A stretch of 40,347 nucleotides of DNA, counting the filler, from Mycoplasmatota bacterium (lineage in GTDB: Bacteria; Bacillota_I; Bacilli_A; RF39; UBA660): the NCBI GenBank assembly GCA_012727915.1. It is 4 parts of 4 records of this genome, joined end to end, with 100 filler letters (N's around TTAATTAATTAA, not from the genome) between each part and the next. Parts side by side here need not be neighbours in the genome. Positions count along the whole stretch, not along the records: positions 20,960 to 40,347 come from JAAYGD010000020.1; 3 more parts are not named here. One strand, 5' to 3'. Made by a program: the position numbers. Below, piece by piece: positions 21,001-30,000 of the stretch; within the stretch, counting starts at the first letter, position 1, and the number at the start of each line of letters is the position of its first letter.

Positions 21001-24000
21001 TTACTCACAATCTTGAAGATGTTTTAGTAGATGAAATAAGAAAACATGGATTTGGTGTTACTGTTTTAGAATATAAAGGAATAAGTGGTACCAAAGATGG
21101 AAGAATGCTAAATATAAGTATAAATAAATCAAAAGAAAAGAATTTAAGAAATTTAATTAAAGAATATGATAGTAGTGCATTTATTGTAGTAAATGAATCA
21201 AAATATGTTGAAAATGGATATTTTAAATAAATATCTTTTTTTATAGAGGGAATTATTATTATTACTCCAATAAACAATTAGGAGTGATAATATGTTTAGA
21301 GTAAAACAAAGAGATTCTAATGATTGTGCAGTAGCATCTTTGCTTTCTATTATAAAGTATTATAAGGGGAACATATCTTATAATAAACTTAGATTAATGA
21401 TGAAATGTGATAAGAGTGGAGTAAGTGCATATGATTTAATAAATACTGCGAAGAAGGTGGGTTTTAATTCTTATGGTATTAAATGTAATTATGATAATTT
21501 AAGTAATGTTAAATTACCTTGTATTGCGCATATTACAGTTAAAAAATATTATGATCATTTTGTTGTAATTGAAAAAATACATAACAAAATATATATTAAT
21601 GATCCTTATTATGGGAAAAAGAAATATAAAAGAAATGAGTTTGAAAAGATATGGAATAATATATTAATTATATTAGAACCAGTATCTGAACTATCTAAAG
21701 AATTTAATCATAAAAGATATTATTTAGAATTAATATATAAATATAAAAAAGATATAATCGTTTTAGTAATAATATCTTTAATTACGATAATACTTTCAAT
21801 AATTGGCTCTTATTATTTTAAATCATTAATAGATAGTAATAAATACATAGTTTTTTTAACTTTTTCGATAATATTGATAATAAGAATAATCTTAGAATTT
21901 ATAAGAAATAAAGTAATGATATTTATTGATAAAACAATAGAAAAAGATCTAATGTATGAGTCTTTTAATAACACGTTATCACTTCAAGAACAATATTTTA
22001 TTAATAGGCAAAATGGAGATATATTAAGTAGATTAAATAGTATAGATAGTATAAAAACATTAATATTTAAAATACCTTTTTTGTTTATGATTTATTTTTG
22101 TATAGTAGTATTTTGTTCTTATGTTTTAATTATTATAGATTTAAATTTATTTATTAAGGTGTTTATTTTATTGATTTTATATTTTATAATTTATCTTATT
22201 TTTTATAAAAAAAACAATAACATGATAAAAAGTATTAATGAAGAAAAGGGTTATGTTAATGGGTTTTTATATGAATCAATAGATGGATTAGTTACTATTA
22301 GAAATAATAATATAATAAGAAATAAGAATAATGAATTTAATGTTATATATTCCAATTATTTAAATATAAAAAATAATTTTAATGATTTCTTTAATTTTCA
22401 AAATACACTGAAAAGTTTGTTATTGTATTTATCTTTTAATTATATATTATATCTCAGTTCAATTTCATTAAATATTAGTAATATTATTTTGTTTTATTCT
22501 CTTTTTATTATGTTGATTGATGCTTTTAGAAATATATTTGAATTAGAAGAGGATTTTAGTAATGGTTTGGTAGCTATAAATAGAATAGATGAATTAATAT
22601 CTACTGATTATGAATATGGTTATAGTTCTTCTAAAATAGAAAGCATTATGTTTGAAGACGTTAGTTTTGCATATAAAAATGATAAATATATAGTTAATAA
22701 CTTAAATTTAAAAATAAATGGAAACGATAAATTGTTATTAAAGGGTAAAAGTGGAAGTGGAAAAACAACAATATTTTATTTGTTATTAAAATATTATGAG
22801 GTTGATAAAGGTAAAATAATTATTGGGGAAGAAAATATAAATAATTGGAATTTAAATAGTATAAGAGATAATATATATTATGTTTCTTCAAGTGAGAAAA
22901 TATTTAGAGGTACTTTGATAGATAATATTTCTTTTGATAATAAAGATATGAGTAGGATAGATTTATTGCTAAAACTTGTAAATTTGGAAAAAGATATAAA
23001 TATGTATATAGAAGAAGATGGTAATAATTTAAGTTTAGGTGAAAAATCCAAACTATTATTATGTAGAGCATTGTTTAGTAATAGAAATGTTTTAATTATA
23101 GATGAATTATTAAGTAATATTGGAATAGAAGAAGAAAATATAATATTAAATAATATAATAGATTTATATAAAAATAAGATACTAATATATACTTCACATA
23201 GAAATATAAATGAAAATCTATTTAATAAAATATTAAATTTAGAAAAGAAGGAGGTTAATTATGAAAACATTGAATAATGAAGAATTGAAAAATATAAATG
23301 GGGGAATTAGTTTTGGTTTATTAGCTCTTTTAGGAGGCGCAATTACATTTATAATTGGTATTCTTGATGGATTAACTAGACCATTAAAATGTAGATAAAA
23401 AGGAAGGAGGAATAATGATACTTTTAAATAATGAAGAATTAAAAAATATAAATGGGGGAAGTATTTCTGGTACACTAATAAGTTCTATAGTAAAAGGAAT
23501 AAGTTTGATTTTTGATTTAGGAAGATCTTTAGGAAGTGCGATATATAGATTAGTAAATAAAAAATGTTGTAAAGCATAAAAAAAGAACAAGGTTACTTGT
23601 TCTTTTAAAATAAGTCTTCAGGAGTATGAGCATTAGGAATATCTTCTTTTTCGGGCAATTCCACATTTTTTGTTTCGTTAACAATTTTTGCTTGTGGTTT
23701 GTTATCAGTATTAATATCAGCGTTATTTGCAATTTCAACATCATCTAAAGCTTTATCAAGATTATATTTATAATCAGACATTTTTCCATCGACATCATCA
23801 TCTAATTCGATTAATTTAACAACTTCTTCCATAGTTGTAATTCCATCTAAAACTTTTAATAAACCATCTTGTAATAAGGTAGTAACATTTGATGTATAAA
23901 CTAATTTTCTTAAACTTTCTTTTCTTACATTTCCCGCAATGGCATCTCTAATTTCTTGAGTAATAACTAATACTTCGTGAATTGCAATACGACCTCTATA

Positions 24001-27000: not shown

Positions 27001-30000
27001 AACTTATTATGATAATATAGTTAAGGTTGCAGGTAATGATGAATTGTTTAGAGTTGTATTAGATGAAGAATATCCTGAAACTAGTCATGGAAAAATTATA
27101 AGACCAGAAAGTATAGATTAGGTGATTTATGAAAAGATTAAATAATAAAGCTTTTTCTTTAGTTGAATTACTTGTAGCTTTTACTACAATTACAGTATTA
27201 TCTTTTGCAATATTTAGAACTGTTATAAGTATTCAAAGAAGACAGCTAATTAATATTGCGTATAATGATTATGTTGTCTTTCAAAGTTCTGTAAATAATT
27301 TAGTTCAAAATGATTTCACTAATAAAGTAATTGAGGCAGTAGAATACTGTGGAAAAAATTGTTATAAAATAAAATATATTGGTGAAATTGAAAAAACTTT
27401 ATCTATTAATACTAATGATAGCACTTTATCTTATGGTAATGTGTCAAATGCCGTAAAATTAAAGCTACCTAAAACATTTACTTTTTATAGAGATATAGAA
27501 CAAAAAGATGAGAATTTTACTGATGTTGAAGAAGATAGACATGATTCTTTAATATTGTTTAGAATTCCTATAAAAAGTACAATTGTTGATAAAGATTTAG
27601 ATATTATATATATTTATCAATTTGATAGTAGAAAAAATCCTGTAAGACCAAATATATAATAGTAAGGAGTTGAAATTATGAATAATAAAGGCGCAATATT
27701 TTCTGGATACATGTATGTATTGTTAGTGTTCTTTTTACTTTCTTTATCAACTTTATTAGTAGTTTTAAACAACTCTAAAAAAGTAAGCAATAAGGCTAGA
27801 GAAGGTGCTGAAAATATTATTGAAAATGATACTACTGAATTTAATTTGAGTCTAAATGGAAATACTACAGTATGTATTAATTTAGGACAAACATATTCTG
27901 ATTTAGGTGTTGTTTCAAAAGATTCTATGGGAAATGATGTTCCAGTTACTATTGTATCAGATTTAAATATTAATCAAATCGGAGAGTATACTGTTACTTA
28001 TACTGCTAAAGATAAGGGTAAAGAAAAAAGTATTGAAAGAAAAGTTAGAGTAATAAAAAATGATTATGTTTACATGGGAGCATCAGAAGAAATTACTTTT
28101 TATTGTGATGGATATTATCAAGTTGAATTATGGGGTTCTGATCATTCAAATGGGCTTGGTGGTTATACAAAAGGAGTTATTAATTTAAAATCTAATGAAA
28201 AACTTTATCTTTTTGTTGGTCAATTAAGTACTGTAGGAAATGCTACAGCTTTTAATGGAGGAACAGGAAGTTCTGGTGGATATCCTGGAGGTGGAGCAAC
28301 AGATGTTAGATTACTTAATAAAACTTGGAATGATTTAGAGTCTTTAAAATCAAGAATTATGATTGCGGGTGGTGCTGGTTCCGGTAATGTTCAATATTCT
28401 CATGGTGGAGGTCTTATTGGTCAAAAATCGGGTATTGCTACTGCAGGAACTCAAACTGCACCCGGAGTTAATCAAAGCGTTTCATATTTAGCTCCTTCAT
28501 TTGGAATTGGAGGAGGAGGCTGCGGAGGTGGCGGTGGATACTATGGTGCAGGTGGAGCAACATGTGTAGATGGTGGAGCTGGAGGATCAGGTTTTGTGTC
28601 AGGACTTGCGGGAGTAAATGCAATTACTAATGACTTAACTATTACTCATACAAATAACACACTTCATTATTCTGGTAAGTATTTTATTGATTCAATAATA
28701 GAAACGGGTAAAGTTGAACCTGATAGACTTACTGCATCTTCTGGTAAAGCAAAAATTACATATATAGGCACTGAATACCCTAAAACAAATACTAGTTTAG
28801 AAAGTGTAAGATATGTAAAAAGTTGTACAAATGGAAATTCAGTAAATGTATACAATAGTTGGGTAGAATTACAAGTAATTAAAGATGGAGTTAATCTTGC
28901 GCTTGGAAAAACTCCAACAGGTACATCTCCTGAAGCATCGGGATTGGAATCATATAATTTTATCGTGGATGGTATGATAGATAATTCAACTTGGACTACT
29001 GGATATGGAAGAAGTAGTTTAAATGGTAATCAATGTGTAACTATTGATTTAGGAAAAGTATATGATGTTGATGAAATTGCTGTTTGGCATTATTTTAATG
29101 ATGGAAGAACTTATACAGATAAAGTAGTGTCAGTTTCTTCTGATAATGTATCTTGGGCAGGAGTAATTATAGGAACAGGAGCAGAAACTCCTAATGGTTC
29201 TAGAGTTAATGCATGGAATTAATTGACTAATATATTTTATAAAGTTATAATATTAGTGTATACAAAGATTAAGAGGAGTAGTATATATTTAATTAAAAGA
29301 GAGTTAGTGTTTGGTGAAAACTAATATATAATATATATGAATGTTACTTATGAGTATAATCGGGAATCTTCGTTAAGGATTTAAGAACATAGAAATCTAT
29401 GTAAGGTGGTACCACGCAAAGCGTCCTTAAGTTTTAAGGGTGCTTTTTTTTGGAGGATAAATGAAAAAAGAGTTGTTAGAATTTAAAAAACATGTAGAGA
29501 AATATGATTTTAAAAATTTAGGAATTAAATTTAAATATAATCATTCAATTGGTGTAATGAAAATAGGGAATTCAATTGCGAAAAAATTAAAGTTAAAAGA
29601 TAATGAAGTTTATATGGTTACTTTAGCGTGTTTGTTACATGATATTGGAAGATTTGATCAATTAAAGATATATGATACTTTTAATGACAAAAAGAGTTTT
29701 GATCATGGTGATTATGCTTATAATTATATTAAAAAGAATAATTATTTAAGAAAGTATACTGATGATACTACATATGATACTGCTATATTAAAGTCAATTA
29801 AATATCATAATAAATTTAAAATTGGAAAATGTAATGAAATAGAGTTATTGTTTTCAAAAATAGTTAGAGATGCTGATAAGGTTGATATATTATTAAATGA
29901 TGGTTTTAAAAAATTTAGTGAATATGAAACTAATGAACTTGAAATATCTGATTCGGTGTATAATAAAATCTTAAATGAAAAAGATATTTCATATGATGAT

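Follow-up and report, generated by a model that had tools for sequence, protein, structure and literature searches.

What do two proteins do that join a pilin-type start to a domain resembling the ligand-binding part of the human receptor kinase ALK, and where would a Mycoplasmatota cell place them? Both are encoded in a window of 40,347 nucleotides, the whole stretch of DNA that was analysed. The genome-wide survey's note had taken them for tip adhesins of a type IV pilus that present a bacterial version of the ALK/LTK ligand-binding module; its observation is confirmed in part and that interpretation is supported in part. Our reading, to which we give a probability of roughly 0.6, is that I-, J- and K-type minor pilins prime a type IV filament, form its cap and act as carriers of swappable, adhesive surface modules.

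Layout of the locus and the filament genes

The four open reading frames placed at 23605..29222 by the survey are borne out, one of 464 aa on the minus strand followed by three of 681, 176 and 514 aa, all on the plus strand. The features are as follows.

23605..24999, minus strand: PilB/GspE-type filament assembly ATPase, 464 aa (PF00437, T2SSE, 417.7 bits)
25076..27121, plus strand: 681-aa modular minor pilin, putatively I-type by position (pilin module, Ig-like, glycine-rich domain, discoidin-like end)
25763..26698, plus strand: PF12810 glycine-rich (TNF-like + polyglycine) domain, copy 1, about aa 230-541 (144.3 bits)
27129..27659, plus strand: 176-aa J-type minor pilin, here without cargo (fold match, Glu5, sub-threshold N_methyl)
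27678..29222, plus strand: 514-aa modular minor pilin, putatively K-type (Gly-1, no Glu5, helix-only pilin part, Ig-like, glycine-rich domain, F5/8-type end)
28056..28772, plus strand: PF12810 glycine-rich domain, copy 2, aa 127-365 (107.1 bits; predicted model, ALK Z 14.1)
28791..29219, plus strand: F5/8 type C (discoidin, NedA-like galactose-binding) domain, candidate glycan binder (PF22633 28.5 bits, cut-off 27.8; PF00754 sub-threshold)

The pilin-like genes do adjoin a PilB-type ATPase, at a distance of 76 bases, but the earlier picture needs correcting in that the ATPase lies on the opposite strand and diverges from them. A promoter scan stayed at chance level (42 against 41.5). The divergent ATPase and the I-J pair recur together in 34 of the 40 family loci fetched. 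The ATPase is the genome's top-scoring PF00437 match and reaches 492 bits with GspE, 471 with PilB and 268 with ComGA (NCBIfam), every one of these models remaining under its cut-off. The platform protein and the prepilin peptidase are neighbours on contig C59, away from the locus, and with them the genome encodes the ATPase, platform and peptidase of a type IV pilin machinery.

Because ComEA and ComEC lie two genes away from a short pilin, the filament may serve DNA uptake. Taken further, it would be mainly a competence pilus, with the trio as a ComGE/GF/GG-like priming set and the cargo as secondary decoration or shielding. Weak ComGE (E 0.002) and ComGF (E 0.04) matches on the 176-aa protein fit such a filament, and so does the lack of a clear retraction ATPase in the genome, where a single further PF00437 match, of untyped kind, exceeds the cut-off. 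We consider it improbable, since the ATPase is far closer to GspE/PilB than to ComGA, whose score falls short of the cut-off of 300 bits, and 16 more pilin-like genes in the genome, of which many bear LRR, GLUG or Ig modules, exceed the needs of DNA uptake. The genes are scattered, unlike those of a Com pilus, and a competence role would in any case be compatible with adhesion.

Three subunits at a putative pilus tip

The 681-aa and 176-aa proteins carry the complete class III signal, consisting of a basic leader, Gly or Ala at -1, a hydrophobic helix and Glu5. Pfam N_methyl is below its cut-off or absent on the three pilin-like proteins; on the 176-aa protein the match reported by the survey (E 2.7e-4) is reproduced at 20.8 bits, just below the cut-off of 21.2. 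Aligned I-like orthologues retain Gly-1 in 31/31 and Glu5 in 30/31 and are mostly cargo-free proteins of 160-190 aa, and a profile of the I-type pilin part matched pilin N-termini only. By its position, the 681-aa protein would be the I subunit.

The predicted model of the 176-aa protein (pLDDT 91.8) resembles GspJ-type pseudopilins best. The three best structures in the VIA search are all J-type, XcpW, EpsJ and GspJ, with moderate Z scores of 8.4, 8.2 and 7.3, close to what the tool describes as a common level (best Z 7-8). The placement comes from VIA only, as none of the 527 Foldseek matches for the same model reached E<=0.001. Glu5 is present in 28/28 J-like relatives, and a J-type match, nearly always single, occurs in 90 of the 151 family genomes.

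In the 514-aa protein, Glu5 is absent as the note had stated, but Gly-1, said there to be lacking as well, does follow a basic leader. Leader and Gly-1 are kept in 29/30 K-like relatives, whereas Glu5 is found in 0/31, against the near-complete conservation seen in the I-like and J-like families. In HIJK sets, K has no Glu5 and caps the tip, according to the available part of bioRxiv 2022.08.25.505150, and we read the missing Glu5 of the third gene as a K-subunit trait because of this precedent. The K-like N-terminal family spans 116 of the 151 genomes, mostly in single copy; its gene adjoins I and J in this genus and in G100, G011 and G048, and lies apart from the I-J pair in most relatives. 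A 55-residue profile of the K-like helix, low in information, retrieved no known K subunit from the PDB (best E 0.22, unrelated) or Pfam. A complex prediction of I (9-158), J (9-176) and K (55 aa) scored 0.00 twice (mark 0.32) and carries no weight either way.

The missing globular pilin head, in a family with members down to about 50 aa, would also suit an ordinary membrane-anchored surface protein, as would the hydrophobic segment of one kind or another with which 120 of the best 150 homologues begin. Such a non-pilin protein fits poorly with the conserved leader and Gly-1, the mostly single-copy occurrence and the position beside I and J, and its likelihood is slight. We keep the 514-aa protein as the putative K subunit.

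The tip location proposed by the survey is now more firmly backed, for in its J fold, its Glu5 pattern and its conserved families the trio agrees with an I-J-K priming set, and the three proteins probably form a type IV pilus tip. Following leader cleavage, the three helices would bundle there, K without Glu5 being topmost, and the filament below would be assembled by the divergent ATPase together with the platform protein and prepilin peptidase encoded elsewhere. In this locus, I and K would each hold out an Ig stalk, a glycine-rich domain and a discoidin domain. Bact_surface_Ig-like is present in both modular proteins, in agreement with the survey. The discoidin-like end that it assigned to both has Pfam support in the 514-aa protein, the one protein of the locus with F5_F8_type_C_2; the C-terminus of the 681-aa protein is without a Pfam match and is discoidin-like solely through likeness to its paralogue (blastp 29%, aa 158-675).

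The glycine-rich domain and its carriers

PF12810 exceeds its gathering cut-off of 24.5 bits in both modular proteins, as the survey had found, and the ALK_LTK_GRD match covers aa 249-537 of the 681-aa protein and aa 144-363 of the 514-aa protein. For copy 1, the Atlas feature and structure neighbours are PF12810 throughout. The AlphaFold2 model of copy 2, built on a 44-row alignment, has a pLDDT of 94.0 and a pTM of 0.92, and in this prediction a β-sandwich is interleaved with a polyglycine bundle across the whole domain. Of 393 Foldseek matches, 21 reach E<=0.001, and those listed among them are all ALK/LTK, with a best E of 7.7e-7 and low TMq values of 0.36-0.46. In the VIA search of 48,161 chains, ALK leads with Z 14.1, 14.0 and 14.0, followed by C. 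elegans ALK (12.7), the Pam3 fibre (8.1), the Bxb1 tail tip (6.7) and the next structure at 3.5. The claimed fold likeness to ALK holds for the predicted model (rmsd 3.3 Å over 174 residues at the best Z), of which residues 1-239 superpose end to end on ALK 682-986. The 44-row profile retrieves 8 ALK-family chains from the PDB (E 4e-9 to 4e-8) and, with the threshold relaxed to E 10, a single further chain, a selectivity that rules out an artefact of glycine composition. Profiles are required for this link, as neither domain retrieved an ALK chain from the PDB sequences when searched as a single sequence. The likeness to the ligand-binding part of human ALK is real, and profile and model comparisons support homology with the ALK/LTK domain.

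The claim that the domain matches only ALK/LTK was overstated, as the two phage tail proteins match over their full length at lower Z. Together with 31 predicted viral structures at E<=0.001, the best of which (2e-14) beats ALK, they rule out an ALK-only fold.

PF12810 occurs in 74 of the 151 family genomes. Its carriers include I, J and K as well as ordinary pilins and proteins that are not pilins, and it swaps with LRR and lectin modules; the same pilin slots in relatives hold LRR_5, Laminin_G_3, Fib_succ_major, fn3 or DUF6273. It is on J in 8/40 loci and on K in at least 8/30. Canonical-pilin N-termini precede it in 18 of its best 150 homologues and K-like ones in 13, and genome G016 has about 19-21 domain matches yet no match to J or K. 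The domain is not pilus-specific. A midpoint-rooted tree of 133 domains, chosen from 652 matches (568 without near-duplicates), with carriers labelled by script and weak deep nodes, needs 43 changes of carrier type, against 69.3 +/- 2.3 when shuffled and a minimum of 5, and shows mixing of carriers with some clustering. As it contains no animal or Trichomonas sequence, it cannot give a direction of transfer. Across the family, the three subunits would serve as carriers for interchangeable surface modules; a conserved pilus tip with changeable heads hints at a possible means of attachment to a partner in a gut lineage that is common, uncultured and genome-reduced.

The domain core has 35 columns conserved at >=90%, 16 of them non-glycine, and loops of 2-34 residues, which suggests a rigid scaffold of β-sandwich and polyglycine with variable loops. 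Evidence for hypervariability within the genus is mixed: copy 1 is less conserved than its flanks in two intact relatives (48-51% against 60-70%), and copy 2 surpasses its Ig and discoidin flanks in conservation (62-73% against 48-62%). A ligand-binding role is unproven, and the single test found for a prokaryote-side member, that of PtsHN10M below, speaks against it. Possibly, though with limited probability, the glycine-rich domain serves the tip as a structural spacer or for oligomerisation and the terminal discoidin domain does the binding. The discoidin-like domain follows both local copies, giant proteins repeat the glycine-rich domain in up to 12 matched stretches, and in PtsHN10M, a receptor-binding protein of a C. 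difficile phage, the C-terminal half alone bound cells, so that the N-terminal glycine-rich half could not account for binding (available part of PMC9615553, whose authors allow that truncations may misfold). Judged by position and size, the Pfam domain of that study would be PF12810. Against a spacer, the domain is C-terminal in 64 of the 146 homologues that have it complete and in 6 of the 8 J-type carriers (1 internal, 1 unscored), and its core is fixed while its loops differ widely in length. We favour a part in adhesion, in which the glycine-rich domain, by itself or jointly with the discoidin domain, most likely aids attachment to another cell or a host surface.

Comparison with known systems

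The survey's view of a first bacterial context, for a fold seen only in metazoan ALK, is contradicted by PMC2843621, PMC8179133 Dataset S1 and PMC9608196; the domain is widespread among bacteria and phages and has been known from these and from Trichomonas since 2010 (PMC2843621). TvBspA-GRD of Trichomonas shares its glycine-rich domain with Flavobacteria, B. cereus, C. difficile and the phages phiCD27 and phiCD119, both also matched by the present search. It differs in being eukaryotic and LRR-fused, and PMC2843621 never mentions ALK ('kinase' has 0 occurrences). Modular type IV pilins such as S. sanguinis PilB and PilC likewise graft an extracellular module onto a pilin module in a small tip set (available parts of PMC8179133 and bioRxiv 2022.08.25.505150); the present set differs in that its putative I subunit is modular as well and that I, J and K exchange cargo. 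In the available part of PMC8179133, Dataset S1 gives IPR012902-PF12810 in 2 proteins and a three-copy form in 1, and Dataset S2 one PilY1 architecture with PF12810; the cargo is listed there without a link to ALK. No text was found that ties pilins or bacterial gene transfer to the ALK domain, in a search confined to literature open without subscription, to which the original ALK structure papers do not belong.

The GspI/J/K complex is matched in the J-like fold, the Glu5-less third subunit and the adjoining genes with an ATPase. It differs in that the K-like subunit here is a helix alone before its cargo, with a gene that is often unlinked, and in that the locus has no H-type gene.

In phages, the PtsM receptor-binding proteins of C. 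difficile phages carry PF12810 at aa 15-259 in the phiCDHM19 and JD032 equivalents (180 and 149 bits), as the N-terminal domain of a trimeric tail protein. The tip of the cyanophage Pam3 fibre gp24 (7YPX), TNF-like plus glycine-rich, aligns with the bacterial model over 127 residues and is more distant, with no sequence match in profile searches. The available part of PMC9608196 describes this tip similarly, likens it to C. elegans ALK (rmsd 2.6 Å, 125 Ca) and proposes host binding.

The ALK/LTK TG domain (PDB 7LRZ, 7NX3, 7LIR) matches the bacterial domain over its full length in structure and profile, with 174-179 of about 300 ALK residues aligned and one short helix in the bacterial model. 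Neither bacterial protein has a kinase, EGF-like or receptor membrane-spanning part in Pfam. Small single-domain bacterial relatives of this fold could be crystallised and ligand-screened. The ALK site-2 residues S737 and Y739 (PMC12017499) align with the near-invariant Glu150 and Trp152 of the bacterial family, the numbering following from the spacing of three named residues, while L760 aligns with a variable position; two of the three named site-2 positions are hence conserved as different residues. As a tentative proposal, the domain may be an old prokaryotic and phage binding scaffold of fixed core and exchangeable loops, shuffled by gut bacteria among three priming subunits to alter attachment, and the source of the animal ALK/LTK ligand-binding domain, its conserved Glu/Trp face being the forerunner of ALK site 2.

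Setting of the pilus locus

The locus lies on contig C76 (window 20960-40347) of an 873-kb genome, 93.8% complete, whose lineage is taken to be RF39/UBA660; RF39 has been described as genome-reduced and uncultured (PMC13155120). The four ORFs described in the genome-wide survey's note were re-derived at the coordinates claimed, and its Pfam scores were reproduced within one bit. Contig C59 carries a prepilin peptidase and a platform protein gene side by side, and 16 more pilin-like genes are dispersed over the genome. ComEA and ComEC are also encoded, because of which the filament may have a second role in DNA uptake. 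Elsewhere in the genome (G000), a second PF00437 ATPase sits in a cluster that is Tad- or conjugation-like by eye (C19:15970-26419). Other features of the window are as follows.

10593-18343: Type VII secretion-like cluster (Pfam and ORFs), including three ORFs of 82-99 aa
11429-12781: weak WXG100 match, part of this cluster
12881-17500: FHA+FtsK protein, 1539 aa, part of this cluster
20861-20959: N run and short linker, the joint of two contigs, which cuts an 831-aa ORF at 18412
21292-23277: Peptidase C39 ABC exporter (Pfam), convergent with the ATPase gene; the fetched locus L061 has a similar-looking gene at the same place
32686-34251: 521-aa protein with no Pfam match, its N-terminal half HD-like by eye

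The gene trio as candidate I, J and K subunits

The model of the 176-aa middle protein consists of a β-meander and a long helix. Its three best matches in the structural alignment search VIA are XcpW (Z 8.4), EpsJ (8.2) and GspJ (7.3), with an rmsd of 3.1-3.6 Å over 101-112 residues, and the next two are other pilins. These Z scores are moderate, yet the top three are all J-type. The middle protein is matched in 90 of 151 family genomes; among 40 loci fetched from these 90, with best hits favoured, the divergent ATPase and upstream pilin-like gene occur in 34 and this arrangement is absent in 6. The N-terminal family of the third gene is present in 116/151 family genomes, mostly as a single occurrence. 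Among aligned relatives, Glu5 is found in 30/31 for the first gene, 28/28 for the second and 0/31 for the third. K subunits, which cap the tip, are described as lacking Glu5 (bioRxiv 2022.08.25.505150), and the missing Glu5 of the third gene therefore fits a K subunit. The earlier note was right that this residue is absent, and had counted that as a weakness; Gly-1, which it had also taken to be missing, is present. We infer that the first gene encodes the I subunit and the third the K subunit, which makes the case for a position at the pilus tip stronger than previously argued. Two genomes of the genus (loci L011, L014, L026, L027) have a gene of ~357 aa separating the J-type gene from the K-type one. 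The K-type protein of locus L236 has an extra glycine-rich stretch beyond its discoidin domain, and at locus L187 (466-4170) a pilin of 1234 aa ends in a long C-terminal run of short cysteine-containing repeats.

Likeness to ALK/LTK and spread of the glycine-rich domain

A Pfam search of this genome gives only two PF12810 (ALK_LTK_GRD) matches, both at the pilus locus. The predicted structure made here is that of the copy in the 514-aa protein (aa 127-365; pLDDT 94.0, pTM 0.92). With this model, Foldseek returns 21 matches at E<=0.001, and among those listed all are ALK/LTK. By VIA, the entire model aligns to ALK 682-986 at Z 14.1, followed by the Pam3 fibre (8.1) and the Bxb1 tail tip (6.7), against a background of 3.5. 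A 44-row profile matches eight ALK-family chains (E 4e-9 to 4e-8) and reaches no other glycine-rich chain. The homology with ALK/LTK is real. The copy in the 681-aa protein shows 43% identity when aligned, and every Atlas neighbour it has is PF12810. The near-invariant Glu150 and Trp152 of the bacterial family align with the ALK site-2 residues S737 and Y739 (PMC12017499), one lead from sequence alignment.

Outside pili the domain is very common: a library of 1.84 billion yields 18,477 clusters at E<=0.001, where low-scoring rows may contain glycine-rich noise, and 3,832 at 1e-30. The N-termini of the top 150 homologues are canonical pilin in 18 and K-like in 13; some members of this set are giants, reaching 7,819 aa and as many as 12 matched domain stretches. 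C. difficile phages also have the domain, in 37 records, as do 31 predicted viral structures. Domain-bearing phage proteins in BFVD carry the UniProt name 'receptor protein-tyrosine kinase', probably an automatic carry-over from ALK.

PF12810 is found in 74/151 family genomes, versus 5/301 in a phylum-wide sample and 0/14 controls. Of 40 loci, 8 have it as surface cargo of the J-type gene; of 30 short loci, at least 8 have it on the K-type gene; and this genus and two others have it on the I-type gene. In relatives the same slots hold LRR_5, Laminin_G_3, Fib_succ_major, fn3 or no cargo. The loops of the I-type copy in G100, a sister genome, resemble those of the K-type copy here (124 identities/233 aligned), a sequence resemblance which suggests that the domain was exchanged between slots. 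The tree of PF12810 domains contained no animal sequence and does not give the direction of transfer. In genome G016 (loci L004, L018, L029), ~19-21 PF12810 matches fall on non-pilin proteins and neither the J-type nor the K-type query is matched, which marks an expansion separate from the pilus tip.

Proposed mechanism and comparison with known systems

Most likely, the prepilin peptidase would trim all three leaders, and the trimmed subunits would prime the filament. From its tip, two Ig-glycine-rich-discoidin arms would extend and attach to the surface of a cell or host. In favour of the glycine-rich domain itself as a binder, it swaps with adhesin-type modules, is frequently the protein end (64/146 homologues), and combines a fixed core (35 columns >=90% conserved) with variable loops (2 to 34 residues), an architecture also reported for the tip of the Pam3 fibre (PMC9608196). 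Against this, C. difficile cells are bound by only the C-terminal half of PtsHN10M (PMC9615553), and in equivalent phage genes PF12810 falls in the N-terminal half. Both local proteins have, distal to the glycine-rich domain, a discoidin domain that is a candidate binder of glycans.

The literature search found no paper linking a pilin with ALK/LTK and none linking ALK with bacterial transfer. The literature found does not contain the I-J-K assignment in this lineage, the movement of cargo between subunits of the trio, or the site-2 alignment. The claim of a first bacterial context does not stand: the domain was defined in 2010 from Trichomonas, Flavobacteria, B. cereus, C. difficile and two C. 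difficile phages (PMC2843621), and pilin+PF12810 architectures are listed in supplement rows of PMC8179133. PtsM is a receptor-binding protein (PMC4453579), a phage fibre tip has been compared with C. elegans ALK (PMC9608196), and ALK has been grouped with phage polyproline-II bundles (PMC13243192). In conclusion, the observation is real, but what it describes belongs to known kinds.
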